This document shows positions 921 to 44,482 of a stretch of 64,000 nucleotides of DNA, piece after piece. Origin of the DNA: Candidatus Bathyarchaeota archaeon (lineage in GTDB: Archaea; Thermoproteota; Bathyarchaeia; Bathyarchaeales; Bathyarchaeaceae); the NCBI GenBank assembly GCA_963806645.1, contig CAWDYQ010000002.1, positions 11,141 through 75,140 on the forward strand. The letters are read 5' to 3'. Each line of letters begins with the position of its first letter. Positions within the stretch are counted from its first letter, which is position 1. The notes beneath the pieces are model-generated. The model was not told the origin of the DNA, searched no databases, and was given only the letters and a program-made list of their open reading frames with translations. A program made the translations under genes and the position numbers.

Positions 921-3515
921 TTATTTTTGTTTCTTAACTGTAATCAGAGTATATACTACAAGAACTGCTACTGCAACAACTGCAACAATTATGACAATGT
1001 CGATCGTAGTGTATTCTGGTATGGTTACAGCAGGCATTTCTGGAAATTCTGGCATCTGGGCTATTACTGCTTGACTAATTTGGTCGGGTGTTGGATTAAC
1101 GGGAAGACTGTTTACTACATTCTGTGCAACGTCTTGGGCCGATGGACCTTGGTATCCTGGAATTGTTGGATAAGGTGCCGGTGCTGGATCAACTGTTATA
1201 TATGTAACTGCTATTGAACCCCAGTATCCTCCTGAACCGTCGAATGACGCCATAATCATGTATTTTCCTTTGATTTGAGGTATGAAAGAATAAGCATAAT
1301 TACCAAAAGCATCAGTTGTTGCGGTTCCAATCCAAGCATATTCGTTGTTTGGATCAACTATCTCTATTTTTACTTGAATACCTTCGACATTCGTGGGACG
1401 TTCAAACTGCATGTAAACATAGCTCATCCATTCACTCATAGAAGCATCAGATACTGCTGGAACACCATCAGGGAATCTTGCAACGATTTCATCTTTTTTC
1501 GTGCCCGCCGAAACATCAGTTACCCTTCCTTCTAGAAGAACACTACTTCCAAGGTTTGTAACTTTAGGAGAAGCCATTACTGAAGTTGCACTGGGTCCTT
1601 TGCCTATTCCATATATGCGGTTGTCATAAGTATTGAAGAATCCTATTATTCCGTCGCCTATTACATTGTGTCCTCCCCAACGGTTCCCTCGCATGTTCAA
1701 TTCCCACTCTAAGTCTCCAGTGTCTGCATCAAGGCATATTGTTGGTGCACCTCGTGGCAGTGGATCAATTGGAGAATGTTCCATATGGAAGAGAACAATT
1801 TTTCTGTCAGCTGTATAGAATGCAAAAAGCATTGGCCAGTTCTCGCCCCACAATATCTCAGTATAGGGGTCGTTTACATTATACTCCCAAACGACATTGC
1901 CGTTAGCAAGATTGTATGCATAAACAATTCCAGCGAATCCAGTACAATAGAGTCTTCCTAGTCGGATATTTATACGAGCACCAAATGCGTCCAAATAATG
2001 TTGGCTTTCAGTTGTCCAACGATATGCTCCTGTTTCAGCACTAAAACCAATATGTTGTCTCGCTTCTTTATTCCACAATGTAAAAACACCGTCTTCTGCG
2101 CTCGCAACTCCCCATTGTATAGAATAGTTACCTGCTGGTGGTTGCCATTCAGTATTAAACAGCATTGTTCCTTGTTGACCTTCTTTAAGACTTATTCCCC
2201 ATAAAGAAATTGGAATATCTGTGCGACCAGTTGTTACGAGTTGATAAGTCCTACTGCTAGTACTAGTTCCGATTATTCGATCTTCCAGAACTGCATTTAC
2301 ACTTCCTGGTAAGTTTGTCGGTATTGAAACGTTCCATTCAAAACCAAGTTCATTAGCGTCTTCATAGACTCGTCCATGAGGGTTCCAGCTTCCTTCGCTA
2401 GAAACAACTCTTGATGAGTTCCATAGGGATATCCAACCATCTGCAAGGTCAATTGTGTAGATAAATATCTCACCTTTTGGTCCTCGAACTCTCGTTCCTG
2501 AAGGAACGTTCTCCATTGTATATACCCAACGTCCAGTATCATCAAATGCACGCCATGTTCTTCCAGTGGTTTCCCATAAGAAGGGGTATGCTCCATGAAG
2601 GTTATATGAGTCCCAATAGAATAGCTGACCAAAATCTAATGTTTTATTGTCCCAATTTCTAGTCCAAAGTTTTTCACCAGTACGAATGTCTACAGCAACA
2701 ACATTGTGTTCAATATTCGTACCTCCACGAGCTTCGTGATCGTTATAAAATAGTACACCATTAATTACTACTGAACCTGCAAATTTTCCTTCATAGGCAT
2801 CTCCGTGGTCATAACTATGATCGCCTAGTTCTCCTCCAACGAGTCCCCCAAATTCTAGTGGTTCTGCCCAGAGGATGTGTCCCGTGTCTGGGGCTTCGTT
2901 GTAAGGTGTGTATGGTCCTTCATAGCGGACAGATTCTAAGAAGTTTCCAGCTATTGGTGCCCATTCTCTGAGTTGTGCATCTACGGGTCGGCTCCAATAT
3001 TCGGTTGGCAACTGATGTCCAGAATAATATTCAATCGGAGTTTGTTGTACAACTAGGGTAAATTCTTCACTTACGCTAGCTTCATAATAAACATCAGCTG
3101 TATAAGCGGGGTATCTTGTCCAGTTGAACCATTGAGCCGGAAAATGTGTCTGCAATATGTATTCTCCAACCATGGTGGGTACATATATTGTACCTGTTCC
3201 TCCTGTGGAGTCGGTGTTAAATGGACCGAGAGTTTCTGTTTCTCCATCTGGTCTTCTGATTGTTGCTGTTAGTCCAATCCAGCTTTTGTCGGCTCTTTCT
3301 AGTTCATCATACATTCCTACGTGAATCAATACTTGTTGGTTAACTCCTATAGGGTTTGGAGTTGCCCCAACGTAACAATGGGTTGCTTTACTGTAAACAG
3401 GTGTTTGAGCAAAAATCACTGGCAATAATACGATGATTGAAGACATTGTTAACAATAGAATTAATGTTATTGTTGAAATTTTTGTTTTGGTTTTTGTGTT
3501 TTCCATTTTTTTCAC
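921..3515 (-). CDS. secreted PQQ-like beta-propeller repeat protein with C-terminal TM anchor (paralog 1)
   Basis: 864-aa ORF with an N-terminal signal peptide. Repeated motifs of the type VVAVDIRTGEKLW, VYAYNLANGNVVW and ICLDADTGDLEW resemble PQQ-like propeller blades. The C-terminus has a hydrophobic helix followed by KKQK. Confidence 0.75.
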   Translation of the reverse strand: MKKMENTKTKTKISTITLILLLTMSSIIVLLPVIFAQTPVYSKATHCYVGATPNPIGVNQQVLIHVGMYDELERADKSWIGLTATIRRPDGETETLGPFNTDSTGGTGTIYVPTMVGEYILQTHFPAQWFNWTRYPAYTADVYYEASVSEEFTLVVQQTPIEYYSGHQLPTEYWSRPVDAQLREWAPIAGNFLESVRYEGPYTPYNEAPDTGHILWAEPLEFGGLVGGELGDHSYDHGDAYEGKFAGSVVINGVLFYNDHEARGGTNIEHNVVAVDIRTGEKLWTRNWDNKTLDFGQLFYWDSYNLHGAYPFLWETTGRTWRAFDDTGRWVYTMENVPSGTRVRGPKGEIFIYTIDLADGWISLWNSSRVVSSEGSWNPHGRVYEDANELGFEWNVSIPTNLPGSVNAVLEDRIIGTSTSSRTYQLVTTGRTDIPISLWGISLKEGQQGTMLFNTEWQPPAGNYSIQWGVASAEDGVFTLWNKEARQHIGFSAETGAYRWTTESQHYLDAFGARINIRLGRLYCTGFAGIVYAYNLANGNVVWEYNVNDPYTEILWGENWPMLFAFYTADRKIVLFHMEHSPIDPLPRGAPTICLDADTGDLEWELNMRGNRWGGHNVIGDGIIGFFNTYDNRIYGIGKGPSATSVMASPKVTNLGSSVLLEGRVTDVSAGTKKDEIVARFPDGVPAVSDASMSEWMSYVYMQFERPTNVEGIQVKIEIVDPNNEYAWIGTATTDAFGNYAYSFIPQIKGKYMIMASFDGSGGYWGSIAVTYITVDPAPAPYPTIPGYQGPSAQDVAQNVVNSLPVNPTPDQISQAVIAQMPEFPEMPAVTIPEYTTIDIVIIVAVVAVAVLVVYTLITVKKQK

Positions 3516-3729
3516 CTTAATTTTTTATAAAGTTTCGCAGTCTATATTATTCACTATATTAGATTTAAGATGAACGATTACAAAAGAATCAAATGTAGTC
3601 ATTTGTATTCATTCAATTTATTATGGAGTCATATTTGTTTCCAAAAATGTTGGACGCACTAGTCATGACATATCATATGGGCAAAGAAAAGAAGAAGATG
3701 GGAATCCAAAAATAACATTAATTAAATCC

Positions 3730-3908
3730 GAAAGAAGAGGGGTTTGCTGAGGCTCCTGCAGGATAAACTATTAGGATGAAAAAAATGAAAAATCAAACAT
3801 ATCTACATGCTCGATTATTTTCATTTTTCCATGCATGAGCCTTTTCAGTCCCCGTTTTCTTTCTATGAGTTTTACTCCCAAAAAAAGAGGGAGGGAAATT
3901 GTTTAGGT
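3730..3908 (-). repeat. conserved ~180-nt element directly 3' of PQQ-like paralog 2 (copy B)
   Basis: Second copy of the element at 741-920. The ends are more conserved than the middle. Confidence 0.7.
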
Positions 3909-6503
3909 TTATTTCTTTTTATTGAGCACTAAGAAACTGATGATACCGATCATAATGGCTACGACAACGAGTACAGTAAGGATAATGTCGATTGTAGAAT
4001 ATTCTGGTACTACTGTAGGTTCAGGGTATTCTGGAAGTTGGCTTATAACTGCTTGACTGATTTGTTCAGGAGTTGGATTGTCAGGAAGACTGTTCACTAC
4101 ATTCTGTGCAACATCTTGTGCTGAAGGACCTTGATATCCTGGATATGGTGGAATTGTCACTTGTGCTGGTGCAGGATCAACTACAAGATAAGTTGTTGAA
4201 GTTGAACCATAATATGCTTCTGACCCATCGAAAGTTGCAATTATTGTGTAAGTGCCTTGCATTTGTGGGATAAATGAATAACCAAAGTTGCCGTATGCGT
4301 CACTAGTTGCTGTGCCAATCCATGCATATGCGCCTGAAGGATCAACTACTTGGATTCTTACGTCAACACCAACTGCATCTGCTGGTCGATCTTTTTGCAT
4401 AAACTTGTATTCCATCCATGCACTCATGTATTCATCAGAAATTGCTGGAGTACCCTTAAACTCAGAACCTGGAGACTGATCAGTTACTGTTCCTGTTACC
4501 ATTACACTGGATCCTTTTGGAACTGCGGTCATTGGAGCTGAAACAGTTAATGCGCTTGGTCCTTTACCGATACAGTATACTGAACCATCATATGCGTTCA
4601 AATAAACTAAGTTTCCGTCTGCGATAGCGATAGGTGCAATTGATGTTCCTAATCCTGAAGCAGACCATCCAAGTAGATTCCAAAGTTCTTCTCCGGTAAA
4701 TGCGTCAACAGCATATACTCTGTATCCTTTGTATAGAGGTGTATTTGGTGAATGCTCACCAGAAAATGCATAAACGACTCCGTTAGAAACTGCAGACAAT
4801 TGGATTGGAGTAAGACCCCAAGGTACTTCTGCTCCTAGGTTTGTGTCACTGAATTTCCAAAGTAGACTACCGTTTGCCATTGAATAACAGAAAATTTCTC
4901 CTCCATAACCGGCAATGTATAGGTTTCCGTATGCTGGGAAGCCTTGTCTGTTGCTGTAGTATTGAAATGCCCGTTGTTCTCCAACTGGACCCCACAATAG
5001 GTCTCCGGTGTCAATACTATAACCGGTTCGTTGGCCTGTCTGGAAGTCTGTCATTGTCCATACACGGTTGACTGGGTCTAGTGGTTGCATTGCTAACATT
5101 CGGGTAATGTTGTTTGCTGGTGCTGGATAGTCTCGGATCCAAAGTAATTGGCCTCTTGTTTCTGGTTTGTCGCTTATGGCCCACATTGTCCATGGGTCAG
5201 GATTGTTATCTCTTGCTTGTGAAGTGAGTGTTATGCCACTGCTGCGTCCAAGTATTAAGTCTCCGGGGATTATACCAACTATGGCTGGGTTTGAGTTTCC
5301 AGGCAAATCAGGGATTGAGACGTTCCAGGAATATGCTTGACTTGCGTCAATTTCTTTTTCCATTGGTCTCCAGCTGATTTCGTTGAATCCAGTTCCTGCA
5401 ACTCCTGCTGCTGCGGTGTTATTCCAGAGAAGAAGTCTACGGTCTCCATAGTTAAGCACATAACGTACTATCTCACCTTTTTCGGTGTATACTTCTGTTC
5501 CTCCAGGAACACCAGTTAAGTTGAAAACGTTGAGTCCGGTGAATGCGTCAATACCTATCCATGTGCTTCCGGCAGTTGCCCATAGGGTACCTCCTACGAC
5601 TCCATGTTGGTTTGGTGACTCGAAATTATAGAGTTGTGCAAAACTTGGGGTGATGTCGTATCTTCGCCAGAGTTCTTCGCCTGTTCGCAAATCAACAGCA
5701 ACGAATCCTCCACCGCTTCCAGCATGGTTCAAAGGTTGTCGGTAATAGAGTATTCCGCTTACGATCATTGGATTACCAAATCGTGTCTCATAAGAATAGC
5801 CAGAGTAGAAAGTTGTGTGACTATCTCCTCCTACCATACCTCCGAACTCGATTGGTTTTGACCATAGTATGTGTGAGGTAGTCGGTGAATTGCCTCCGTC
5901 TTGCCAGCGATCATCAACATCTCCTCCGTTTAGCCAATTTGATGAGATGTCACCCCATAGGTGGTTTGCTCCATCTACTGGACGGGTCCAATATTCTGTT
6001 GGAAGTGCAGCTTCGGGTATTCCTGTTACTTGTTCTTCTTGGACAGTTAGTGTAGTTGTTGCGCTGCTAGGAAGATAATAGTCGTTTTGGTATGCTCCTC
6101 CAAAATCATATACTTGTCCTGGGAAATTGAACTCTAAAGTGTATGTTCCTACTTGATCAGGAACATATACTGTATATGCTGATGATGTTGTGTCTACAAC
6201 GATTGGCCAGTTGACTGTTACTGTGTTTCCGTCAGGTTTTGTTATAGTTAGTACGTAACCCTCAAATCGGATATCGTTAGTGATACTTGCTGAGTTAATT
6301 ACTCTTTCCAACCATACCACAATGAGGGCTGGTTGGTTAACTCCGGACGGGTTGGGTGAAACGTTGATGAATGCGTGTGTTGGAAGTTGCCATGCAGGAT
6401 CATGTGCAGTGACAGATGTTAAAGTAATTAATGCGGTAGATAGAGTTAACAATAGAATTAATGATATTACAGAAATTTTTGATTTTAATTGACTTTTTTT
6501 CAT
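3909..6503 (-). CDS. secreted PQQ-like beta-propeller repeat protein with C-terminal TM anchor (paralog 2)
   Basis: 864-aa ORF, the same length as 921..3515. It has a signal peptide and the same blade motifs (FVAVDLRTGEELW, IFCYSMANGSLLW, VYAVDAFTGEELW). The C-terminal block GYQGPSAQDVAQNVVNSLP.NPTP.QISQAVI is nearly identical to paralog 1. Confidence 0.75.
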   Translation of the reverse strand: MKKSQLKSKISVISLILLLTLSTALITLTSVTAHDPAWQLPTHAFINVSPNPSGVNQPALIVVWLERVINSASITNDIRFEGYVLTITKPDGNTVTVNWPIVVDTTSSAYTVYVPDQVGTYTLEFNFPGQVYDFGGAYQNDYYLPSSATTTLTVQEEQVTGIPEAALPTEYWTRPVDGANHLWGDISSNWLNGGDVDDRWQDGGNSPTTSHILWSKPIEFGGMVGGDSHTTFYSGYSYETRFGNPMIVSGILYYRQPLNHAGSGGGFVAVDLRTGEELWRRYDITPSFAQLYNFESPNQHGVVGGTLWATAGSTWIGIDAFTGLNVFNLTGVPGGTEVYTEKGEIVRYVLNYGDRRLLLWNNTAAAGVAGTGFNEISWRPMEKEIDASQAYSWNVSIPDLPGNSNPAIVGIIPGDLILGRSSGITLTSQARDNNPDPWTMWAISDKPETRGQLLWIRDYPAPANNITRMLAMQPLDPVNRVWTMTDFQTGQRTGYSIDTGDLLWGPVGEQRAFQYYSNRQGFPAYGNLYIAGYGGEIFCYSMANGSLLWKFSDTNLGAEVPWGLTPIQLSAVSNGVVYAFSGEHSPNTPLYKGYRVYAVDAFTGEELWNLLGWSASGLGTSIAPIAIADGNLVYLNAYDGSVYCIGKGPSALTVSAPMTAVPKGSSVMVTGTVTDQSPGSEFKGTPAISDEYMSAWMEYKFMQKDRPADAVGVDVRIQVVDPSGAYAWIGTATSDAYGNFGYSFIPQMQGTYTIIATFDGSEAYYGSTSTTYLVVDPAPAQVTIPPYPGYQGPSAQDVAQNVVNSLPDNPTPEQISQAVISQLPEYPEPTVVPEYSTIDIILTVLVVVAIMIGIISFLVLNKKK

Positions 6504-6816
6504 ATTTGTTCTTTCCTAATTGTATTACATTGATAAAAACAATTAAAGAGTATTTATACTTGTCCTATAAGACCGTTATAGGCGTAAAAACCGCCCTATT
6601 TTAACATGTTTACTTTCCAATAAAATCTCGAATATTAAGTTCTTAGGAACATTTTTTTAGAACATAAAACACATAAAATCGTTAACTCGCGCGTCTATGG
6701 ACTCCTTTATATGAGTCGAAATAATAGTATAGTTGAAGAGTTTTCTTTTATTACATGGGTTTGTCCTGCGGACTAACTGAAATCTTTTCTATTCAAGTAA
6801 AATGAGGTGAGTATAC

Positions 6817-6978
6817 ATGTCCCAAAAAAGAATGTTTGAAGTTAAATGCACTGAATGTCAGAAAAATACTACTGTACCATTTGAACCAACAAAAGGCAAA
6901 CCAGTTTACTGTAAAACGTGTTTTTCGAAACACAGGACTCAGAGAACAAGAAGACCTATTGAGCCCTATAACCTTTGA
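6817..6978 (+). CDS. small CxxC-x17-CxxC zinc-ribbon protein (53 aa)
   Basis: ATG at 6817 is preceded by AGGTGA 7 nt upstream. Translation is MSQKRMFEVKCTECQKNTTVPFEPTKGKPVYCKTCFSKHRTQRTRRPIEPYNL. It is below the ORF-track length cut-off. The listed ORF 6836..7060 is an overlapping off-frame shadow. Confidence 0.6.
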   Translation: MSQKRMFEVKCTECQKNTTVPFEPTKGKPVYCKTCFSKHRTQRTRRPIEPYNL

Positions 6979-7194
6979 TATGAAAAACGCATGGGCAACA
7001 CGCGGAGAAAAACTAAGAAAAACCCCCAAAGAGCCTAAAAGTATTTTTAAAACCAATTAATGCCATAATTAGATCAGATTGTTTGGGGTTAATTTTTTGC
7101 CTCCCCAAAATCCCAATTCGTAAATACAGTATTCTTAATCTCAATATACCAATGCTGAGCTTATGACAACTCAATTCTTTTTAGTAAACAAAAA

Positions 7195-7852
7195 GTGAAA
7201 CCGAAAGCAAACAGTAAGTCATGTGAAAAATTTTTTAGGAAAATTAATTATGAAACTTTAAATTCACTTCTAATAGTATGTATGTTAGTGGTTTTTATGA
7301 CAACAAACCAAAAAAACCTAATTTTGCGCTATGAACTGTTTGGAATGCTTTTTGTTTCCATTCTTGGAGGACTACTACATTTTACTTTCGAATTGTCTGG
7401 CTTCAATCCAATTGTCGGTACATTTTCAGCAGTAAACGAAAGCGTTTGGGAACACCTAAAGTTGGGTTTCTGGCCCATCTTACTAATAACAATAATCGAA
7501 TACAGGTTTATACTAAAACAAACTAACAATTTCTTTCTAGGAAAGATGGTTAGTGCTTTTACGATAATCCTTGTTATTCCTGCAATCTTTTATTCGTATA
7601 CTAGCATTACAGGAGAAAGTATTTTCTTGATAGATATTCTCAGCTTTTTCATAGCAGTTATAATTGGTCAGGTCCTAAGTTACAAGATACTAACATACAA
7701 GCAACTACCAGAATATTCAAAATGGATTTCTTTATTCATCATTAGCAATTTTGGCGATAATATTTATTGTTTTCACGTTCTATCCACCTAATCTGCCGCC
7801 ATTTCAAGATCCAATATCCGGCGGATATGGAATCATAAACCAACCACATTAA
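7195..7852 (+). pseudogene. multi-pass membrane protein (DUF6512-like) with apparent +1 frameshift near 7735-7745
   Basis: The ORF 7195..7791 contains the motif FSAVNESVWEHLKLGFWP. The +1 frame continues from about 7742 with a TM-like LAILAIIFIVFTFYPPNLPPFQDPISGGYGIINQPH to a stop at 7850-7852. Confidence 0.45.
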
Positions 7853-7962
7853 CCATTCAATCTCTAGTTTTAGAAATCCTCAATACAAAAAATTCAAACA
7901 AAAAACATATCGCAAAAGTGGTCCGCAAATGATAAATAAACAAAAAACAGATAATATGTTTT

Positions 7963-8787
7963 ATGAATTCTAAAGAAAGACAAGAAATTATAGCTAAATC
8001 GCCGATTTCTTTTTCATATCTTAAACGGTTCAATGCAGCAGCAGGTGTTTTGCATCTAATCCAAGGACTACTAATGCTAGGATTGGGAACTCAACTAGAG
8101 TGGGAACGCAGCATTTACACATTCTACACAAAATTTACAATAATCCAAGGTCCACCATTTCAACTAGAAGTAACTCCAGATCCCCAGGTACTGTTCACCA
8201 TAGGATACTTGGGAATAATTGTAGCATCTTTTCCACTACTTTCTTCTGCAGCTCACTTTATTATTGCATTCATAAAGAATAATAAATATAACGAAAACCT
8301 GAAAAAAGGAATGAACCCCTACAGATGGTACGAGTACGCATTCTCTAGCTCAATAATGATAGCGTTGATAGCCCTCTTTTTGGGCGTATGGGATTTCTGG
8401 TCGTTAGCAATGATCTTTGTACTAAACGCAATGATGATAATGTTCGGATATTTGATGGAACTGATAAACCAAAAAACCGAAAAAACAAGCTGGTCAGCCT
8501 TTATCCTCGGAACAATTTCTGGATTCACACCGTGGGTCGTGCTATACGCATACTTCATTGGATCGTTATTATCAATAAACGCAGATGTACCAACCTTCGT
8601 TTACATGATTCTATTCATATACTTCATAGTCTTCAACATTTTTGCAATTAACATGATACTTCAATACAAAGGCGTTGGCCGCTGGAAAGACTATCTTTAC
8701 GGAGAAAGAATCTACATAATTCTTAGTTTCATCGCAAAAACAATCCTATCATGGCTAGTATTCATTGGAATATTTGCACCATTCTAA
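7963..8787 (+). CDS. heliorhodopsin
   Basis: 274 aa with seven hydrophobic segments. Blocks recalled from heliorhodopsin 48C12 match: FNAAAGVLHLIQ, NPYRWYEYAFSSSIMIALIA (counterion-position Glu124), VLNAMMIMFGYLMELINQ, and LQYKGVGRWKDYLYGERIYIILSFIAKTILSW (Schiff-base-position Lys259, codon 8737-8739). Confidence 0.85.
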   Translation: MNSKERQEIIAKSPISFSYLKRFNAAAGVLHLIQGLLMLGLGTQLEWERSIYTFYTKFTIIQGPPFQLEVTPDPQVLFTIGYLGIIVASFPLLSSAAHFIIAFIKNNKYNENLKKGMNPYRWYEYAFSSSIMIALIALFLGVWDFWSLAMIFVLNAMMIMFGYLMELINQKTEKTSWSAFILGTISGFTPWVVLYAYFIGSLLSINADVPTFVYMILFIYFIVFNIFAINMILQYKGVGRWKDYLYGERIYIILSFIAKTILSWLVFIGIFAPF

Positions 8788-35714: not shown

Positions 35715-38700
35715 TTATTCAATGTCTGAGGTTGCCTTTTCAAGTTTTTGTGGCTTCTGTTTCCTTTTTGACACAATAACAGTTACAGATATGGCACCAG
35801 CTAACACAATTGCCACATACAAGAGCATGTTAGAAACATGGACATTTAGCACATTTTTTTCGGCTCGTTCAAAGTCTGGATATTCAACTTCAACAAATAT
35901 GCTCTGAAGCGGGCTCCAATCGCGTATTTCACAAGCATATGTTCCGGACTCAATTTCATTGCATACGTTTCCATTAACCAAAACGGTTGCATTGAAAACC
36001 GGATTCTCTGTGTAAACATAAACGGGGAAGACCTTTATGTCAGACAATTCCAAATTCATAGTCTCAAATTTTATTTGCGGTATCCCGATTTTGTCCCATG
36101 TTATTTCAATGGATCTATCTTGATTACGAACCTTTGTGAGACCAAAAAATCCATCGCTAACCGAAGTAGCCGCATACATTTGCGGACCGATCACGTCTGA
36201 TGTTACATCCTGTTCCCATCTAGAGTTTTGGTTAGACCAGGTCATCGGTTTTCCATTAAGGAAAATTGTTCCATTTGACTCGTCAAAAAGAATAGAATCA
36301 TATTCATACTCAGCTGTCAGCCATACTGTCTGAAATGAATCTGACTGAACAATTTTGTTGATTTTGATGGAATCAGTGACGCTTATCCTGTCCCAAATTA
36401 TTTGAGGATCATCAACAGATTTCGCGAAATCAGTCAAATTACCGTATCTAATTTCTGTAACGTTCCAAACAACTCTATCAACGATATTATGGCTAACGTC
36501 GAAACTAATCCAACCTGTTTCGTTTGTCACATATTCGGTATCGTTAACGATAACATTTACCCCAGGTAAATCAGACCCGTTACGCATCCAAGCCACATGA
36601 ACGCCAACGGTTTGGACACTGCCAACATCAGCACGATCATCACTAACAATTGTACGATCTATCTCGATTTGCTTAAAGCCGAAAGACAGTTCAGCAGTTT
36701 CTGTTCTGAACGAGTAATTGGCAGATATAACCCCCGTCGAAGCGTTGTAACTCCATGTTGAAACCTCTTCACCATTGACTTTAAAGTAATAAGGCTTCAG
36801 TTCGCCAATCTGAACACGTATGAAACCTGTTTGTCCAGTGGCTGCTTTTGTGGAGATGTCTAGAAGCCCACGTGAAGTGTTCCATGAGAATTCCGTTAAT
36901 GTGGCGCTTGAGGACAACACAGAATATTCGGTTGTGTTATCCCAACCAACAGTTATGTTCGAGTTTGAAACTATGGTTAAAACTTTGTTTGATATGTCGT
37001 ATACTTGTGTCACTTCAAAGGGCACCCCAAGAATGTAGTTTGGTTGTTCATAGTCTGAGCAGAAAATTCTGGTTGTATTTTCTGCTTCTCCGGCAGCTGT
37101 AAGCCCCACTGTAAGGTGATGGTCAACAAAAAGTGGAGTTGAGGTTAAGATGGTGTCCGAGTGTATTACTTGTGGCTGGCCAGTATCTTCCAGAAAAACA
37201 AGTAGTTTGCATTCATTAGTTTGCAGGGTTAAATTCAGAGAATAAACTGGGCTTTCGGTGATACCGTAAAGTTGGTTGTTGAAGTAATCGAAAACAACAT
37301 AATTTTTGTTATAGTCTAAGCCAACCTTCAGTGGTCGAAGGTAATAAGAAAATGTTTGATTGGCTGTGGAGTTGTCGTGGCTAAGGTAGATGGCTCTGTC
37401 AAGCTGTCCCTGATTCAACCAATACTCAACTCGGGGGTATGGCGTGTATAAAATTGGTTTTACGTAGTATGCGCATAGATAATGTATGAACTCTGTTAGA
37501 ACATCGGTTAGGACACCGTCCGGAAACGAGTTTGGGTTGCGGGTATTTACAATGTAGGTGTAGCCTGCGCCTTTCCTGTTTTCGATTATGAATGCGTTAG
37601 ACTTACCCCCAACACGGTTAACCCAAGCTATTACTCGAGCATCCTCGCTGGGCCAGATGAAGTACTTGAATTTCCAGAACCAAGAAGCAAACTCCCCCTG
37701 CTCAAAGTAGTTGTAGGTTCTTCCGCTCCATTTGGACCAGAACGTGTCTTCTGTAAAAATGATTTCATGCAGATGAACATCAGCCTTTACATCCAACCCG
37801 CTTTCAGAGTAAGTAGTTACATGAATTCCGAACAGTGAACCGTAATTTTTTGTCCACGCGTACGGGTCTGTAAGGTCATCCACAGTTTCGTTAGAGTGAG
37901 TGAACGTCAACGGAGAAAGAAAAACTCCGCCATCTTGAACGTAAGCTTCAATGTTTCTGAATAGGGTGTCACTCATCACGCTCCAGCCCAAGCCGATTAT
38001 TACGTCATACTGCTTCATCACAAAGGGGGAAGCATAGACGGAGATGACGTCCACCATTCCGAAGGGTAACCCCGTAATTTGTTTGGCTACTTGTGCACTA
38101 CCTATCTGCCAGTTGTCGCCGATTCCAGGATAGAAGATGTTCAATAGTTGGTAATCAAAGTCTCCCTGCGTTGCCGACTGATTCCATAGCCCCCAATCTG
38201 ATCCTCGGCTTCCCCATCCACTTTGTCCAATCATAACCGCAATAGATGAACGATAGTCTGGTTGAGTGTAGCCTACACTTTTTTCATTTTGTAGGAAGGT
38301 GTAGAATTTTTGAATTGCTTTTCCGAACTCGGTTAGTTTGCCATCCGGGTCCAGAATGATGTGCTTACTATTGATTGGCCAGTCACGGTCAAGGGTTCCA
38401 AAGAATGTGCCTTGCTCAAAGAAGAAGTATTTTGCTCCGTAAAACCATGCTTCGTAGAGCACCCTTTCTATATCGTTGGGAGTGAAATCTGCTGGAGGTT
38501 TAGTCCATTCCTTCCATGTATCCACCCACAGTCCCCAATCTGATATGTTGTATGTGTTTACCATGCCTCGAGCTAAGCCTATCATTAACTCTACGTTTGG
38601 AGCGTTGAAGACTTTGCTTATGAAAACGTCGCAGTATGAAGTGTTAGCTGAGGCGTAGCTGACAACGTTTTCTTGAAGCATTATACGAGCGCCGTTTTCT

Positions 38701-39239
38701 TTGAATTCTGCTAACTTCATTGTGGATGTAATGTTTTCTATTACTGCCTGTTCTGCTTGAAGCCGGGTTTCGATTGTTCCGGTTGAGTTGTTTGCCCACG
38801 TGTTGTTATCTATCTGTTTTCCAGTGATTTCCTGAACCAGAATGCCTAGAAGACGCGGATATTGGTCTTTCCAAACCTCAAACTGTTCAGGTGATATTCT
38901 GACGTTATGGTCTGAAGCGTTGTAGGTTTCGAAGATTGTGTAAAGTCCCAGATTGTTTGCTTCTCTGATTGCATCCTCAATTAACGTTAGGTTCCATGCT
39001 TGATCCATGGGATGGAGGATAACCATGTTGCCGAGTTGGAGGTCTTTAACTTTTTTTATGCTTTCCAAGATTGCCTGCTGTTGGCTTTCGAGGATTAAAA
39101 TTCCCATGAAATATTCGGGTTCATCCTCATGTGTTTCTTGAGCAAAAACTGGAGAATAAATTGAAGAGAAGGAGATTGTGAAAATGAGTAATATTAACAA
39201 AAGGCCAAATAGCTTATGTGCCAGTTCCAACGGTTTCAA
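35715..39239 (-). CDS. 1174-aa extracellular protein with signal peptide and C-terminal TM anchor (possible glycoside-hydrolase-like TIM-barrel N-domain)
   Basis: Long intact ORF with a TTG start preceded by AAGGTGA. It has many N-x-S/T sequons. The C-terminus has the hydrophobic helix LLYVAIVLAGAISVTVIV followed by SKRKQK. Confidence 0.7.
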   Translation of the reverse strand: MKPLELAHKLFGLLLILLIFTISFSSIYSPVFAQETHEDEPEYFMGILILESQQQAILESIKKVKDLQLGNMVILHPMDQAWNLTLIEDAIREANNLGLYTIFETYNASDHNVRISPEQFEVWKDQYPRLLGILVQEITGKQIDNNTWANNSTGTIETRLQAEQAVIENITSTMKLAEFKENGARIMLQENVVSYASANTSYCDVFISKVFNAPNVELMIGLARGMVNTYNISDWGLWVDTWKEWTKPPADFTPNDIERVLYEAWFYGAKYFFFEQGTFFGTLDRDWPINSKHIILDPDGKLTEFGKAIQKFYTFLQNEKSVGYTQPDYRSSIAVMIGQSGWGSRGSDWGLWNQSATQGDFDYQLLNIFYPGIGDNWQIGSAQVAKQITGLPFGMVDVISVYASPFVMKQYDVIIGLGWSVMSDTLFRNIEAYVQDGGVFLSPLTFTHSNETVDDLTDPYAWTKNYGSLFGIHVTTYSESGLDVKADVHLHEIIFTEDTFWSKWSGRTYNYFEQGEFASWFWKFKYFIWPSEDARVIAWVNRVGGKSNAFIIENRKGAGYTYIVNTRNPNSFPDGVLTDVLTEFIHYLCAYYVKPILYTPYPRVEYWLNQGQLDRAIYLSHDNSTANQTFSYYLRPLKVGLDYNKNYVVFDYFNNQLYGITESPVYSLNLTLQTNECKLLVFLEDTGQPQVIHSDTILTSTPLFVDHHLTVGLTAAGEAENTTRIFCSDYEQPNYILGVPFEVTQVYDISNKVLTIVSNSNITVGWDNTTEYSVLSSSATLTEFSWNTSRGLLDISTKAATGQTGFIRVQIGELKPYYFKVNGEEVSTWSYNASTGVISANYSFRTETAELSFGFKQIEIDRTIVSDDRADVGSVQTVGVHVAWMRNGSDLPGVNVIVNDTEYVTNETGWISFDVSHNIVDRVVWNVTEIRYGNLTDFAKSVDDPQIIWDRISVTDSIKINKIVQSDSFQTVWLTAEYEYDSILFDESNGTIFLNGKPMTWSNQNSRWEQDVTSDVIGPQMYAATSVSDGFFGLTKVRNQDRSIEITWDKIGIPQIKFETMNLELSDIKVFPVYVYTENPVFNATVLVNGNVCNEIESGTYACEIRDWSPLQSIFVEVEYPDFERAEKNVLNVHVSNMLLYVAIVLAGAISVTVIVSKRKQKPQKLEKATSDIE

Positions 39240-40309: not shown

Positions 40310-40483
40310 ATGGACTGGGATAAAGCTCAGGATTTCTTTAAAAAATATTCTCCTATAACGATCTGTTTCATAGGCGCCATGCTTTTGTTGACTATGGGAG
40401 CGAGGGACAGAGCATCTCTTCTTTTGGTTATAGGATTTGTTATGCAGCTTTTCTGGTCATGGCGCATGCACCGTAGAGGATAG
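40310..40483 (+). CDS. 57-aa two-helix membrane peptide
   Basis: ATG at 40310 is preceded by GAGGT 8 nt upstream. Translation is MDWDKAQDFFKKYSPITICFIGAMLLLTMGARDRASLLLVIGFVMQLFWSWRMHRRG. It is more plausible than the overlapping minus ORF 40327..40530. Confidence 0.4.
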   Translation: MDWDKAQDFFKKYSPITICFIGAMLLLTMGARDRASLLLVIGFVMQLFWSWRMHRRG

Positions 40484-40552
40484 ATACAATCCCGCAGAGA
40501 TCCATAAATAGTCAATATCTTCAAACCCAATAGCCAATTTTTATGAAATAAG

Positions 40553-41104
40553 CTATTTCAGCAATAGTAGTTCAACAAGTGCTTTTTGATCGACTTCTGC
40601 ACGGGTTCTCCAGTCCAAGTAAAGTTGATTGTGCTCGTCCTCACCCAAGTATCCAGTTCTGATGTAACGGCTAATGTTAATTTCGACTCTCCAACCAGGT
40701 AGCTTACTACGAAGCAGGTCTTCTACCTCATCTCGATTCGCCTTACCCTTCTTGGAGATAATATATGAGATGGCTGTAGCTAAACCAGCAAGATCGTCTA
40801 TCCTCCACCCCATCATTTTTGCATCTTTTTCAGGTAAACCTCCCCTAACCGTAACATAGAATCGAGCCTTATTCAAATCTTCTAAAGTTGGTTGTCCAGA
40901 TGGATTTTCGACTTCAAAAACTGTTTTAATCTGCAAATCCAGCTTTTCCAGATGACTTTCCAAAACCTTCAGAATTTTAGGGTAATCAGACCCCAACGCG
41001 TTTTTCAGTTCCCAACCCTTAACGCCAGGCTTCATGTGACGTTTATAGAATAGCAATCGAGTTGCCCTTTTGATTTTGCGGTCATAATAAGCTTTTTTTG
41101 TCAT
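40553..41104 (-). CDS. tandem winged-helix 'kite'-type subunit, MAGE/Nse3-homology-like (tentative)
   Basis: 183 aa, overlapping the upstream kleisin gene by 23 nt. LLFYKRHMKPGVKGWELKNALGSDYPKILKVLESHLEKLDLQIKTV and LYLDWRTRAEVDQKALVELL resemble the recalled MAGE homology domain consensus. Confidence 0.5.
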   Translation of the reverse strand: MTKKAYYDRKIKRATRLLFYKRHMKPGVKGWELKNALGSDYPKILKVLESHLEKLDLQIKTVFEVENPSGQPTLEDLNKARFYVTVRGGLPEKDAKMMGWRIDDLAGLATAISYIISKKGKANRDEVEDLLRSKLPGWRVEINISRYIRTGYLGEDEHNQLYLDWRTRAEVDQKALVELLLLK

Positions 41105-41909
41105 TTAATTTTCCTTCTTTCCATCTAATCCATTCATCAAAACTTATAGAGATTGGAACAGAAACCAAATGTCTATCAGAAATCTCTAACCGCGGTTCTG
41201 TAAAAGGCATTATGAAAACCTCTTCATCTAGGGGATGCAGCTCTAATGTCGCATAACCGTATGTCACCAAGAAACTGGCCATGTAGGCTCTGTCCAATGT
41301 TTCATTGTAAGTGTCACAGCCAATAAAATCCCAATATAATATCTTCCTGTTTTCACCAACCTTCTGCTTCAGTTGATCCCATGATGCAACAAGTTCTTCC
41401 ATGAAAGTTTTCTCGACTAAAATTTTCTGTCTCACAAGCTCCTCTCGCGTTATGGCCCCAATCTGTGTTTCCACGGGTCCATCATTTTGCCATCGCTCAT
41501 CTATTGGAACCAAAGAGTCCCAGTATTTCATTGCTTCAGTTAAATATGGAATAGAAAGCTGCTCCATTTCGATAACTGGGGTCCAAACTTTTGTAAAAAC
41601 TTCAATAAGGTCTTCTTTTTTGAGTTTATGAATTTTCTCTTCAAGCAGGAAGGGATCAGTGTATAGTGATGTAGATCTGTATTGCACCCAATTTCCCTGA
41701 TTCTGTATTACAGACGCCAAGCATTGCACCGCTTCTGCATCAAGTGCCATCTCTTCAGGCGATTCCCACTCAGGAAAATATTGTTGAAGTGTAGCTATTA
41801 TGTCGTCGATGTTCAAGGAAAACGGATCTACTCCTCGTTCATCAACGGATTTACAGAGTTCAATGACTCGTTGAATGCGATCGCTACTTAATTTTTCTTT
41901 GTTGGACAA
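41082..41909 (-). CDS. kleisin (ScpA-like) subunit
   Basis: The TTG start directly abuts the SMC-like stop. The N-terminus GVDPFSLNIDDIIATLQQYF...LDAEAVQCLASVIQNQ resembles the ScpA N-domain. The C-terminus LDRAYMASFLVTYGYATLELHPLDEEVFIMPF resembles its winged helix. Confidence 0.55.
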   Translation of the reverse strand: MSNKEKLSSDRIQRVIELCKSVDERGVDPFSLNIDDIIATLQQYFPEWESPEEMALDAEAVQCLASVIQNQGNWVQYRSTSLYTDPFLLEEKIHKLKKEDLIEVFTKVWTPVIEMEQLSIPYLTEAMKYWDSLVPIDERWQNDGPVETQIGAITREELVRQKILVEKTFMEELVASWDQLKQKVGENRKILYWDFIGCDTYNETLDRAYMASFLVTYGYATLELHPLDEEVFIMPFTEPRLEISDRHLVSVPISISFDEWIRWKEGKLNDKKSLL

Positions 41910-43955
41910 TTAGGTTACCTCTTTTATTAGCGATGCTCCTTCAACGTTCTGAACAGTTATTAGGTGAATATTTTTTCCGTTAAATGTAAGTTGACTGGGT
42001 GTGATAGCCAAGTATTGGGAGTCTAACCCTGTTACTGAGGAAACGAGAAGATTGGCAATAATTTCCCTGTTCTTTGGATCCATGTGAACGTCATATTCGT
42101 CAACAGCTCTGAATGGAGAATGAACATACTGTTGTAAGGCTAGAAGAAAAGTCACTGTGGCGGCGCTCCTTTCTCCTCCACTCTGAGTGAAAGCGTTCAG
42201 AGGAACAGGATTTCCTCCCTTGAAACCCACAAAGATTTCGAGCCCTGCATCTTCAGTATCCTGCTCATTTATCAACTTAACTTCCCCTACTGCCTGTGCT
42301 TCGGAAAGAATCTTTCTGTATTTGATATTAACTTGATCAAGGAGTTTGTGAATAACACTTCTCCAAGCATCCATCCTTGATTTTACTTCCTCCAACGCCT
42401 TTTCACGGTTTTCTGAAACCAAACGAGCCTTTTCTTTAAGTTCTAAATATAACTTTGAATAGGATTCATACATGTGCTCTATGTTCTCAGACACATCTGC
42501 TAACGCAGTTAGGTGCCCGTCAGTTAAACGAAGCTCCTCTAGAATATCCATTGTACTTTGAAGAGGTACAAGTCTTTGTCCCACCTTCTCCGCTCTATTT
42601 ATATATCCTGTAAGATCAACCAGAGAATGCTGAAGCTCCTTGTCTAAGTGCTTCATGGTTTTATTGAACTGGCCCTTTTGAAAAATCAGCAGAGCTAGGT
42701 TGATCTTATTGTCAACCAGATCATCGGTGATTCTTTTAATTTCATGATCAAGAGAATCTACCTTGCTTTTAATATCCGAAATTTTGTCACGCAGTATTTT
42801 GAGTTGTTCATTGGAGCTTGCTACAGACTTGTTCAAGATTGCGCCTCTCATATTGAACCGTTGGGTCCAAACATCTTCCAAGGCATCGTAGCTTGCTTTT
42901 ATTTCACTAATTTGTGGTCTGAGGTCTACGGGATTTGTTTTTTCGTGGACGACTTTTTCAAGAGTTCTAATGTTGTCTAAGACTTTTTCCATACCTTTCT
43001 GGTGATTTTCTGTGAAAGTTTCCGTGTCCTTCAGGGTTTGATTTGCGGTTGAGGCTACTAAATCCAGTTTTGCCTGTTCACGTTCAAATATGATCCTGTT
43101 TTCGAAAAGGTTTCTCCATAATGTCCTAGATTCTTCAAGTTTGCTATCTAACTCAGTTATGTCTAGAGTAATGGTTTGGATCTTATCTTCAATTTTTTTA
43201 ATTTTTCTCTGTAGCTCGTGCTTCTGTTCTTCCAGTTTGGTAACGATTCTTTCCCTTTTTAACACTTCAGCCCACGATAGTTCACGTTCAAGAAATCGTC
43301 GTTTTATTATAAGCTGTTTTTTTTGTTGATAACGATCATACTGTTCTCGCCAATAGTTAAGGGTCTGTTGGGCTGATTCAAGAAGCTTCCCAACTGAATC
43401 TCCTTGACTTAAAATGCGGCTCAATTTCTTTTGAGCAGTAGTAACATTTTTTCGGTAAGATTCAAATCCTACTGCGGCCTCGACCATCCTCAACTTATCT
43501 TGAGAGGAAAGTACACTGAATTGGTTAACCATGTTTTGATGCATGATTATGAGCATGTTTTCTGGATCAACTTCAAACTTGGAAAGAAGACGATTAACCT
43601 CTATCTTATTTGCGGCGGTGTTTTCCAGTTCGAACCAGTATTTTCCATCCCGCCTCAAATTTCTTGTTAAAAAGATTTGATCCTTTTTTAGTTTGTTCAC
43701 TGGTCTTCGCCCATCTCGTGACGAATTATCCAAAACCAAGGTGACTCTGGCTTCATCTTTTCCATATCGAATTAGATCACTTAGTCTTTTAGATCGTTCA
43801 GTTGACGATTGACCTAGTGCTACTGAGATACCTAGGAGAATAGAGGATTTACCTGAGCCGTTTGGACCGCAGACTACATTGACGCCCTCTGTGAAGGGAA
43901 TTCGAGCGTATTCATAGGACATGAAATTTTCTAAGATAACCTCTCTAATTAGCAT
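41910..43955 (-). CDS. short hinge-less SMC-family ATPase with Smc5/6-like head motifs
   Basis: Walker A CGPNGSGKSS and a Q-loop region IIMHQNMVNQF. The signature and Walker B region is QSGGERSAATVTFLLALQQYVHSPFRAVDEYDVHMDPKNRE. About 350 residues of heptad-rich sequence lie between the head halves, with a Pro-containing apex (HEKTNPVDLRPQ) and no hinge domain. Confidence 0.8.
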   Translation of the reverse strand: MLIREVILENFMSYEYARIPFTEGVNVVCGPNGSGKSSILLGISVALGQSSTERSKRLSDLIRYGKDEARVTLVLDNSSRDGRRPVNKLKKDQIFLTRNLRRDGKYWFELENTAANKIEVNRLLSKFEVDPENMLIIMHQNMVNQFSVLSSQDKLRMVEAAVGFESYRKNVTTAQKKLSRILSQGDSVGKLLESAQQTLNYWREQYDRYQQKKQLIIKRRFLERELSWAEVLKRERIVTKLEEQKHELQRKIKKIEDKIQTITLDITELDSKLEESRTLWRNLFENRIIFEREQAKLDLVASTANQTLKDTETFTENHQKGMEKVLDNIRTLEKVVHEKTNPVDLRPQISEIKASYDALEDVWTQRFNMRGAILNKSVASSNEQLKILRDKISDIKSKVDSLDHEIKRITDDLVDNKINLALLIFQKGQFNKTMKHLDKELQHSLVDLTGYINRAEKVGQRLVPLQSTMDILEELRLTDGHLTALADVSENIEHMYESYSKLYLELKEKARLVSENREKALEEVKSRMDAWRSVIHKLLDQVNIKYRKILSEAQAVGEVKLINEQDTEDAGLEIFVGFKGGNPVPLNAFTQSGGERSAATVTFLLALQQYVHSPFRAVDEYDVHMDPKNREIIANLLVSSVTGLDSQYLAITPSQLTFNGKNIHLITVQNVEGASLIKEVT

Positions 43956-43969
43956 CTGCGTTCCAGCAT

Positions 43970-43981
43970 CTTTATTTAAAC
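43970..43981 (-). promoter_or_regulatory. candidate TATA box of the SMC-like operon
   Basis: GTTTAAATAAAG on the minus strand lies about 15-26 nt upstream of the ATG at 43955, which suggests a short or absent leader. Confidence 0.3.
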
Positions 43982-44162: not shown

Positions 44163-44482
44163 ATGGGTTTACTTTCGTTGGAATTTAAAAAAAGAGTGGC
44201 TGAAATCTACCAGAAAAATATAACAAATTGGAGAAACTGGATCCCACTACAATGAAGACTTTTGCAATAGAAATCATAGAAACCATAGATAATGAAAAAA
44301 AGAAGCCTGAAGCTATTCATGACTTGGAAATTCTTGAATATAACATGAAACTGCTTAAAAAATACTCAGCTGCCCTCAAACAATACACACAAGATACAGA
44401 CGAATACGACTTCACCCAAAACGATTGTAAAAATTTGGTTGATTCTACAAAAAGATGGCTAAAACTAAAAAGACTTTTCTAA
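44163..44482 (+). pseudogene. hypothetical small protein with apparent -1 frameshift between 44200 and 44227
   Basis: ATG at 44163 is preceded by GAGGTG and gives MGLLSLEFKKRVAE.... The listed ORF 44228..44482 is in the -1 frame. Both frames are open across the junction. Confidence 0.35.

Follow-up and report, generated by a model that had tools for sequence, protein, structure and literature searches.

The operon examined here, which lies on the minus strand of the window (the whole stretch of 64,000 nt that was analyzed), encodes an SMC-type ATPase, a kleisin, and a double winged-helix kite, and is very probably the form that the archaeal SMC5/6-related SMC complex takes in Bathyarchaeia, with a chromosomal housekeeping role rather than a mobile or defensive one. 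An Smc5/6-like complex with a single kite gene had been proposed in the first-pass annotation of this DNA, and the proposal is supported, with all three assignments surviving profile, Pfam, and fold tests.

Gene organization

The three ORFs are closely packed, and all coordinates given here refer to the minus strand. The ATPase gene (41910..43955; 681 aa, ATG start) matches Pfam SMC_N at 2e-35, and its TAA stop is followed immediately by the TTG start of the kleisin gene (41082..41909; 275 aa), which overlaps the kite gene (40553..41104; 183 aa) by 23 nt, the kite ATG lying inside the kleisin ORF. The tight coupling of three minus-strand genes described in the first-pass annotation is confirmed by these ORF coordinates. 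A TATA-box-like element, TTTAAATA, can be read from the sequence at 43973..43980, where it precedes the ATPase ATG by approximately 22 nt; it is a putative archaeal promoter, from which the operon transcript would be leaderless. At the thresholds used, homologs numbered 4264 for the ATPase (E ≤ 1e-10), 2488 for the kleisin, and 3993 for the kite, and because each protein has thousands of homologs these are real genes rather than chance ORFs.

Assignment of the three proteins

The ATPase consists of an N-terminal head (residues ~1-170), a coiled-coil hairpin (~187-555), and a C-terminal head (~560-681), and the ATPase motifs quoted in the first-pass annotation are present and conserved family-wide. 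In the Walker A motif or P-loop, GPNGSGKSS (residues 30-38; 43842..43868), six of the nine residues are invariant (G30, P31, N32, G33, K36, and S37), as also is G35, in two family alignments. The region from the signature QSGGERS (residues 591-597) to the Walker B motif FRAVDEYD (615-622) occupies 42090..42185 and, when aligned residue by residue with human and yeast SMC5, belongs to an Smc5-like stretch, QSGGERS...PFRxVDE...MDPxN...QY..ITP; the equivalent place in the canonical Smc of Pyrococcus reads SGGEKA...PFYLFDEIDAHLD. With a full-length family profile searched against the PDB, the top match was human SMC6 (1.9e-60, 208 bits), with 177 bits for yeast SMC6, 169 each for yeast SMC5 and Pyrococcus Smc, 124 for SMC2, and 46 for Rad50, which came last; these SMC6 and SMC5 matches equal or exceed Pyrococcus Smc and leave SMC1-4 and Rad50 far behind in this ranking, which is possibly inflated by coiled-coil matches. 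The C-terminal head alone gave 97 and 93 bits for SMC5 versus 68 for Pyrococcus Smc, and the N-terminal head alone is weakly discriminating (yeast SMC6 best with 91 bits, SMC2 84, SMC5 83, and archaeal Smc 78). The ranking of profile scores, the shared motifs, and published trees support a nearer kinship of the ATPase with Smc5/Smc6 than with canonical Smc or SMC1-4, and the Smc5/6-like character claimed earlier is borne out by a family profile headed by SMC6 and SMC5 together with SMC5-type motifs.

Family profiles were needed for the kleisin and the kite, for which single-sequence searches matched nothing, and the sequence matches obtained are weak in absolute terms (E 1e-4 to 2e-2). The only PDB protein matched by the kleisin profile was Nse4 (yeast Nse4 at 1.1e-4 and human NSE4/EID3 at 3e-3), over the C-terminal winged-helix part only and with an SFL..G motif in common; Pfam Nse4_C was found in nine of 13 kleisin members. 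Searches of Pfam, NCBIfam, and PDB sequences gave no ScpA match, and the N-terminal domain had no significant match to any kleisin. An Nse4-like kleisin with a C-terminal winged helix of Nse4 type is supported by these profiles, and the ScpA/kleisin-like patterns noted earlier at both ends hold in part: the kleisin identity stands and the C-terminal part is Nse4-like, but the ScpA likeness and the N-terminal pattern found no match.

The AlphaFold model of the kite (pLDDT 90.3, pTM 0.77) comprises two winged helices only, with no RING domain, and its top five Foldseek matches were NSE1, MAGE-G1, Nse3, Nse1, and MAGE-A4 (E 3e-5 to 4e-4, TM up to 0.66), with JetB sixth (2.3e-3), MukE seventh, and ScpB at ranks 20 and 46. 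The kite family profile matches Nse3/MAGE and NSE1, Pfam SMC_Nse1 was found in eight of 36 members, and ScpB had no match among Pfam, NCBIfam, or PDB sequences. Profile and model together support an unduplicated Nse1/3-like kite to which Nse1 and Nse3 are equally close. The double winged helix and the Nse3/MAGE matches anticipated in the first-pass annotation are retained, but not the restriction to Nse3, and the protein is not an ordinary ScpB, which first appears in the fold search only at rank 20. The accompanying premise that the MAGE/Nse3 fold is generally eukaryotic is outdated; archaeal Nse1/3-like kites have been published.

The same searches bear on the reading of the operon as a divergent canonical Smc-ScpAB, the ordinary prokaryotic condensin, in which ScpA and ScpB would evolve fast and Smc would be truncated. 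The best NCBIfam models for the ATPase are SMC_prok_A and SMC_prok_B (8e-53 and 6e-42), the best PDB match of the single ATPase sequence is the Pyrococcus Smc head (3.4e-26), and ScpB and MukE do appear among the fold matches of the kite. However, the SMC_prok scores are far under the cut-off (179 versus 729 bits) with partial coverage of the model, no member has a Pfam match to SMC_hinge, ScpA, or ScpB, and the family profiles put SMC6/SMC5, Nse4, and Nse1/Nse3 first. A separate ScpB-like kite is also usual in Bathyarchaeia, and a genome of the order B26-1 has a separate canonical operon (bioRxiv 10.1101/2024.01.07.573240), all of which leaves a divergent Smc-ScpAB very unlikely.

Conservation and genomic surroundings

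Of the best 80 Bathyarchaeia loci, across which kite identity is 67-87%, nearly all that have enough flank keep the order SMC-kleisin-kite, and the same triad is found in five distant relatives with kite identity of 31-40%, in agreement with the expectation that it is conserved as an operon elsewhere. From these sequences the three genes are predicted to be co-transcribed in that order, and the arrangement is conserved across the class. The kite is encoded in at least 586 species-level genomes; in some genomes (five loci) the kleisin-kite pair occurs without an adjoining SMC gene. A Bathyarchaeia (TACK) origin was shown, and the named sources among the best 120 of the 4264 ATPase homologs, which are 670-683 aa long, are Bathyarchaeota or Bathyarchaeum; the best 120 of the 2488 kleisin homologs are 268-275 aa long. 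The flanking genes are ilvB/N/C, a leuA-like gene, and genes for a molybdopterin oxidoreductase and an aminoacyl-tRNA synthetase. The operon and the genes adjoining it include no nuclease, no Toprim, and no other effector, the operon and its flanks no Nse2, Nse5/6, or other conserved extra gene, and the window no canonical Smc.

An anti-phage or anti-plasmid defense system built on an SMC-like ATPase, of the Wadjet/JetABCD, Lamassu LmuB, or MADS type, is less likely still. Lamassu LmuB is likewise an SMC-like ATPase with short arms and no hinge, the kite has JetB as its sixth structural match, and PADLOC models for mad3 (2.3e-27), LmuB (4.4e-20), and JetC (5e-11) match the ATPase; these matches are, however, generic to SMC heads and coiled coils, JetC, which in Wadjet is long and has a hinge, covering only a coiled-coil stretch, and no PADLOC model matches the kleisin or the kite. 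The neighbors are biosynthetic housekeeping genes, and no JetD or LmuA-type effector is among them; the first-pass annotation had noted the lack of an adjacent JetD-like nuclease or Toprim gene. Its view that Wadjet-type defense is not indicated also agrees with the distribution, since the number of species, the kite identity across the Bathyarchaeia loci, and the kept gene order point to the behavior of a core gene rather than to patchy, fast-turnover defense islands.

The coiled-coil arm

The AlphaFold model of the ATPase is unreliable in the heads (pLDDT <50, shallow alignment) but confident in the arm, an antiparallel coiled coil (residues 187-458; 42582..43397) in which a helix of residues 187-338, a seven-residue turn at 339-345, and a helix of residues 346-458 form a continuous hairpin with pLDDT mostly 84-95 and approximately 76-77 around the turn. 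The turn, KTNPVDL (42921..42941), occupies the place of a hinge domain; the tip sequence at residues 337-348 is HEKTNPVDLRPQ. The calculated arm length is ~22 nm (152 residues x 0.15 nm), about half that of a canonical Smc arm, as the first-pass annotation had estimated. Pfam SMC_hinge was not matched in the ATPase even at E ≤ 1 and is absent from the recorded Pfam families of the closest 120 of the 4264 homologs, as the hinge domain is from the AlphaFold model and the family alignment; among 61 family members, none has the CxxC of a zinc hook in its middle region. The protein is an SMC without hinge or zinc hook, as had been claimed, and its arm forms a simple coiled-coil hairpin with an indel-tolerant tip. 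This tip is the least conserved part (column identity 0.21-0.39 across residues 311-360), and the length variation of the family maps entirely to it, in the form of deletions that span roughly 12 to 60 residues; wherever a locus has the complete gene, the SMC is 555-697 aa long. Strong conservation is seen in the heads and in the first 40-50 arm residues of each strand.

A short hairpin without a hinge between two ABC head halves is also found in Rad50, RecN, ASRP/ClsN, and Lamassu LmuB, whose dimers are joined by a zinc hook or by a dedicated interface at the tip and which are not known to work with a kleisin and kite; the present protein, by contrast, lacks a CxxC, has a tip of low conservation, and comes with a kleisin and kite. 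The least likely reading of all is that the ATPase is a member of a hinge-less archaeal SMC-related family (ASRP/ClsN/Sph, arcadin-4) or a Rad50 paralog beside two unrelated small genes, for although its size of ~600-700 aa resembles that of ASRPs and NCBIfam gave matches to Rad50 models (down to 6e-21), ASRP (1.8e-14), and arcadin-4 (2.4e-11), all these scores lie far under the cut-off (ASRP 53 versus 300 bits; Rad50 models at most 74 bits versus cut-offs of 700-1087), Rad50 is last among the PDB matches, the coiled coil of ASRPs and Rad50 is tipped by a zinc hook (PMC9389158), and ASRP genes have no conserved neighbors (PMC9389158), while this ATPase is translationally coupled to kleisin and kite class-wide.

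Comparison with known systems

Operons of the kind described here have been published before. An "SMC5/6-related archaeal SMC" was defined by Yoshinaga & Inagaki (2021) for TACK archaea, with Bathyarchaeota among the sources and Bathyarchaeota homologs in the trees (PMC8665677), and van Hooff et al. (2024/2025) described SMC5/6-related operons of archaea in which an SMC is encoded together with an Nse4-related kleisin and an Nse1/3-like kite (bioRxiv 10.1101/2024.01.07.573240). The family is found in TACK and Asgard archaea, often accompanied by a second, canonical SMC complex. In Supplementary Table 3 of the latter, most Bathyarchaeia have an Nse1/3-related kite, often beside an Nse4-related kleisin, and in most such rows a ScpB-like kite is present as well. 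Both SMC5/6-related and canonical Smc-ScpAB-type operons occur in one listed example, Bathyarchaeota archaeon E29_bin60 (order B26-1). The present locus has the same three components, gene order, and TACK range, nothing separates it from this family, and it is a member; the published treatment is phylogenetic, and no experimental study of the archaeal complex was found in the literature searched. The architecture was described in the first-pass annotation as not known to be characterized; the complex as such has been published, but short arms and a missing hinge are apparently unmentioned in the searchable text and supplements of PMC8665677 and bioRxiv 10.1101/2024.01.07.573240, and a hinge-less, short-armed SMC in an SMC5/6-related complex may be unreported.

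Eukaryotic Smc5/6 is alike in its head motifs (QSGGERS, PFRxVDE, MDPxN, and ITP), in the C-terminal winged helix of its Nse4-type kleisin, and in its Nse1/Nse3 (MAGE)-type kite. However, it has a pair of Smc5 and Smc6 joined by hinges where there is one SMC gene and no hinge here, it has Nse1 (with a RING) and Nse3 where there is one kite gene and no RING, and it has the SUMO ligase Nse2 and the loader subunits Nse5 and Nse6, which the present operon is without; the present arms are about half as long and show no sign of an elbow. Smc-ScpAB shares the three-gene logic of SMC, kleisin, and kite, and probably a 2:1:2 composition with a homodimeric SMC and homodimeric kite. In that complex the hinge is conserved and the arms measure ~47-50 nm (PMC5344682), neither feature being found here, and ScpA and ScpB belong to other sequence families than this kleisin and kite; in related Bathyarchaeia Smc-ScpAB is a separate operon.

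Proposed workings

By analogy with Smc-ScpAB, MukBEF, and Smc5/6-Nse1/3/4, the heads of two SMC subunits would engage around two ATP molecules, the SMC being presumably homodimeric because the operon has a single SMC gene. A single kleisin would link the two SMCs, binding one at its neck and the other at its cap, with a kite homodimer on the middle of the kleisin, and DNA would be clamped atop the engaged heads, in the space that separates the kites from the head-proximal coiled coils. The same analogy suggests that the job of the complex may be chromosome maintenance, for example repair or the handling of junctions or replication stress, and that it may work alongside a separate canonical Smc-ScpAB. 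The arms may pair at their tips, zip up along their sides, or leave the ring open. With its heads and proximal arm conserved and its tip variable, the complex has its conserved business end in the module of head, neck, kleisin, and kite, and the usual models of a ring or of segment capture may not hold for an SMC that has no hinge.

Operon structure and genomic setting

The operon consists of three minus-strand ORFs, and the ORF calls agree with the layout described in the first-pass annotation: an SMC-type ATPase (41910..43955, 681 aa, ATG start), a kleisin (41082..41909, 275 aa, TTG start), and a kite (40553..41104, 183 aa, ATG start). The kleisin TTG follows immediately after the TAA stop of the ATPase, and the kite ATG lies 23 nt within the kleisin ORF, giving an overlap of the two genes. 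All three ORFs are real genes; 4264, 2488, and 3993 homologues were found for the ATPase, kleisin, and kite, respectively, at the thresholds used, and the closest homologues with a named source are from Candidatus Bathyarchaeota or Bathyarchaeum in each case. The element TTTAAATA, located ~22 nt 5' of the ATPase ATG, is a putative archaeal TATA box, and the transcript of the operon would be leaderless.

The genes around the operon are housekeeping genes. By translation, the neighbors include ORFs resembling the large and small subunits of acetolactate synthase, ketol-acid reductoisomerase, and leuA, while a small HTH_45 regulator (Pfam), a molybdopterin oxidoreductase, a class I aminoacyl-tRNA synthetase, and histidine biosynthesis genes are also present. 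No nuclease, Toprim, transposase, or other defense or mobile gene adjoins the operon, and canonical Smc, ScpA, and ScpB are absent from the 64-kb window. The window has a G+C content of ~39%, and its large ORFs encode an aminoacyl-tRNA synthetase, PQQ-type beta-propellers, and one protein without a Pfam match. The last of these is a 1174-aa protein (35715-39239, minus strand) with two hydrophobic segments, one N-terminal and the other C-terminal, and a lysine-rich tail after the second. Twelve close relatives have kept it at a position downstream of the operon. The propellers are a tandem pair of 864-aa paralogues (921-3515 and 3909-6503, minus strand), in each of which the sole recognizable region is PQQ_2 (BamB-like beta-propeller).

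Two small ORFs flank the operon. An 84-aa ORF without a Pfam match (44228-44482, plus strand) is divergent from the SMC gene and is probably a real small gene, since 7 related loci have it at the corresponding position, with 52-72% identity. Just 3' of the kite, a 67-aa ORF with a TTG start (40327-40530, minus strand) was considered as a fourth subunit, but its conservation is weak and limited to 3 close loci, and it matches no family, so it is probably not one.

Affinity of the SMC ATPase

The ATPase matches Pfam SMC_N (E 2e-35), with no match to SMC_hinge even at E<=1. Among NCBIfam models, those for SMC, Rad50, ASRP, and arcadin-4 match, all far under their cut-offs. As a single sequence searched against PDB chains, the ATPase is roughly equally similar to the Pyrococcus Smc head (3.4e-26), human SMC5 (2.5e-24), and human SMC6 (1.1e-23), while its C-terminal half scores 67 bits with SMC5 versus 51 with Pyrococcus Smc. 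The alignment with SMC5 has the common stretch QSGGERS..T...L.ALQ....PFR.VDE....MDP.N...QY..ITP, whereas canonical Smc has SGGEKA...PFYLFDEIDAHLD...QFIVIT at the corresponding place.

A family profile that takes in relatives down to 33% identity ranks the PDB chains by similarity, not by a tree, in the order human SMC6 (208 bits, E 1.9e-60), yeast SMC6 (177), yeast SMC5 and Pyrococcus Smc (169 each), human SMC5 (150), SMC2 (124), SMC3 (103), and Rad50 (46). This ranking agrees with published phylogenies, in which Bathyarchaeota homologues are placed with Smc5/6 (PMC8665677). Because matches in the coiled coil can inflate full-length scores, the head halves were also searched separately. The N-head profile discriminates only weakly between SMC classes, with 91 bits for yeast SMC6, 84 for SMC2, 83 for yeast SMC5, and 78 for Pyrococcus Smc; for the C-head profile, the ranking points clearly toward SMC5 (97 and 93 bits, compared to 68 for Pyrococcus Smc, and 66 for human SMC6 with 55 for a second SMC6). 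The two head halves are nearest to different paralogues, which may reflect only the unequal divergence of Smc5 and Smc6 after duplication.

Identity of the kleisin and kite

Neither the kleisin nor the kite, as a single sequence, has a match in Pfam, NCBIfam, PADLOC, or PDB, and an exact-sequence look-up of the window's kite gave no record; family profiles were needed for both. The kleisin profile has 13 members from Bathyarchaeia loci and three distant loci. In PDB it significantly matches two proteins only, Nse4 from yeast (1.1e-4) and NSE4/EID3 from human (3e-3); both matches span the C-terminal winged-helix region, share the motif SFL..G, and leave the N-terminal domain uncovered. Pfam Nse4_C is found in 9 of the 13 members (best E 2.9e-4), and Pfam ScpA in none of them.

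When 1.84 billion cluster representatives were searched exhaustively with phmmer, relatives of the kite formed a small family of 121 clusters, and a 36-member alignment of this family underlies the profile, Pfam count, and AlphaFold model. The profile matches Xenopus Nse3/MAGE (4.8e-4), MAGE-G1 (0.005), and human NSE3 (0.019) in PDB, as well as NSE1 (E 0.016 and 0.021), with no match to ScpB or MukE. Pfam SMC_Nse1 is found in 8 of the 36 members (best E 4.7e-6) and MAGE in 2. The predicted structure is a confident pair of winged helices (pLDDT 90.3, pTM 0.77), for which the top five Foldseek matches in PDB are NSE1, MAGE-G1, Nse3, Nse1, and MAGE-A4 (E 3e-5 to 4e-4, TM up to 0.66); JetB and MukE come next, with E of ~2-5e-3, and ScpB appears only at ranks 20 and 46. 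The kite is equally close to eukaryotic Nse1 and Nse3 but has no RING, and is best called an unduplicated Nse1/3-like kite.

Relation to described archaeal systems

Yoshinaga and Inagaki (2021) divided archaeal SMCs into canonical and "SMC5/6-related" types, the latter mostly from TACK archaea, including Bathyarchaeota; both types are carried by 44 of the 80 genomes that have an SMC5/6-related archaeal SMC (PMC8665677). According to van Hooff et al. [quoted passage not shown]

The system is thus already known, both as a kind and within the Bathyarchaeia lineage. The first-pass annotation had proposed a Smc5/6-like holocomplex, and while its observation is confirmed and this interpretation is supported, the proposal is not new; its premise that the MAGE/Nse3 fold is generally treated as eukaryotic is outdated. 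Neither arm length nor the absence of a hinge is mentioned in the portions of text and supplements searched for these two studies (PMC8665677; bioRxiv 10.1101/2024.01.07.573240).

Conservation of the operon

One genome was scanned for each GTDB species, using a kite alignment narrower than the 36-member one, and at least 586 genomes encode a kite relative. The best 80 loci were retained, and all are from Bathyarchaeia, several on complete chromosomes; Asgard, Korarchaeia, and Caldarchaeales fall outside this best-80 sample, and eight further loci were reached via distant kite representatives. Where there is sufficient upstream sequence, nearly all loci retain the gene order SMC-kleisin-kite, and the same triad is found in five loci with distant kites of 31-40% identity (L081, L085, L089, L090, and L091). 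Kite identity is 67-87% over the 80 best Bathyarchaeia loci. This breadth, stability, and identity are the behavior of a core gene and argue against a defense system; the PADLOC matches of the ATPase (mad3, LmuB, JetC, PtuA, and GajA) reflect generic P-loop, SMC-head, or coiled-coil similarity.

The exceptions are few. Inserted DNA separates the SMC gene from the kleisin gene by 2.5-4.7 kb in two genomes: locus L012, where a PaREP1 gene intervenes, and L013, with a similar gap of ~4.7 kb. An extra subunit in the L012 gap was considered and rejected, as the insert (3654-6188) holds the PaREP1-family gene together with an oppositely oriented ORF of 143 aa. The kite is ~3.7 kb away from the kleisin in L039, and has neither partner gene in its flank in L038. 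In five loci (L026, L054, L052, L032, and L083), the flank upstream of the kleisin-kite pair lacks an SMC gene, and the SMC gene of these genomes must lie elsewhere or have been lost. Upstream of the L026 pair (6186-7558) are genes for a methyltransferase, a glycosyltransferase, and UDP-glucose dehydrogenase, and upstream of the L083 pair (7300-8567) is a cysteinyl-tRNA synthetase gene.

In 8 of 91 loci, a gene for a DNA helicase of the Lhr type (DEAD / Helicase_C / WHD_Lhr / DEAD_assoc) converges on the kite gene, either directly after it or within ~5 kb: L088 (1037-3545), L089 (8569-11406), L090 (8466-11174), L091 (4864-6678), L063 (4425-7241), L073 (4738-7557), L022 (8706-10340), and L083 (1-942). 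Four of these loci are distant ones, the helicase has 836-945 aa where complete, and the window has no Lhr gene. The proximity could be lineage synteny or hint at a link with repair.

A short arm without a hinge

Complete SMC genes encode 639-697 aa in the Bathyarchaeia loci; in the distant loci, the lengths are 623, 630, 629, 555, and 566 aa. Pfam PF06470 (hinge) is in none of the complete SMC genes of these loci. The AlphaFold run on the ATPase used a shallow alignment (>=75% identity) with a head pLDDT <50, and only the coiled coil was considered. The middle of the protein is predicted with high confidence as one hairpin, in which a helix (187-338) and a second helix (346-458) are joined by the seven-residue turn KTNPVDL (339-345); a break (459-481) follows the hairpin, and then helices running into the C-head. 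Within the middle, prolines occur solely at the tip (P342 and P347) and in the break (P464). No CxxC occurs in this region in 61 family members, which excludes a zinc hook of the Rad50/ASRP type (PMC9389158). With ~152 residues, the calculated arm length is roughly 22 nm, compared to ~47-50 nm for Smc-ScpAB (PMC5344682). The first-pass annotation was therefore correct in describing half-length arms with neither hinge nor zinc hook.

Column identity is ~0.8-0.95 in the heads and the first 40-50 head-proximal residues of each arm strand, but falls to 0.21-0.39 at the arm tip (residues about 311-360), and every length difference in the family is a deletion of roughly 12 to roughly 60 residues at the tip. 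Conserved heads and necks with a loose tip are the opposite of the pattern in a hinge-bearing SMC. The absent hinge, variable tip, and range of 555-697 aa over the clade are solid as features of the sequences. A full-text literature search for hinge-less archaeal SMCs gave nothing relevant. To our knowledge, a hinge-less, half-length architecture has been described for no kleisin-binding SMC, and Smc, MukB, JetC, and Smc1-6 all have a hinge. We tentatively suggest, with confidence falling slightly short of even, that the SMC5/6-related SMC of Bathyarchaeia is naturally hinge-less and half-length, yet works with a kleisin and kite.

Proposed mechanism and significance

The operon demonstrably encodes three coupled components. 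By analogy with Smc-ScpAB, MukBEF, and Smc5/6-Nse1/3/4, two copies of the SMC would form a homodimer whose heads engage on ATP, a single kleisin would bridge neck and cap and carry a kite homodimer, and the engaged heads would clamp DNA. The strong conservation of heads and necks and the loose tip suggest that the functional core lies in the head/neck/kleisin/kite clamp. The two arms might pair at their tips, zip side by side, or not join at all, and the mode of joining determines whether DNA can be topologically entrapped. The same analogy makes a chromosome-maintenance role alongside canonical condensin likely.

The operon belongs to an archaeal lineage thought to be ancestral to eukaryotic Smc5/6-Nse1/3/4, and so bears on the origin of eukaryotic chromosome-maintenance machines. 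This point is already in print with Bathyarchaeia, and the locus is one further case, not a discovery. Its potential importance is architectural, and the remaining interest is in a short, hinge-less SMC of ~22 nm arms and evolutionarily loose tip that acts with a kleisin and kite. It allows direct tests of whether a closed hinge is required for DNA clamping or entrapment of the Smc5/6 type, and of which arm segments are tuned for function. With ~1140 residues for one copy of each subunit, the complex is a compact object for reconstituting an ancestral-type Smc5/6 core and studying it by cryo-EM. If the hinge-less architecture is true, it would provide a compact model for that core and, for mechanistic studies, a minimal SMC complex that is possibly non-topological. 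The head/neck/kleisin/kite clamp would then be the functional core of the Smc5/6 lineage, leaving two options: a dispensable hinge that this clade has lost, or a hinge and long arms that eukaryotic Smc5/6 gained later.
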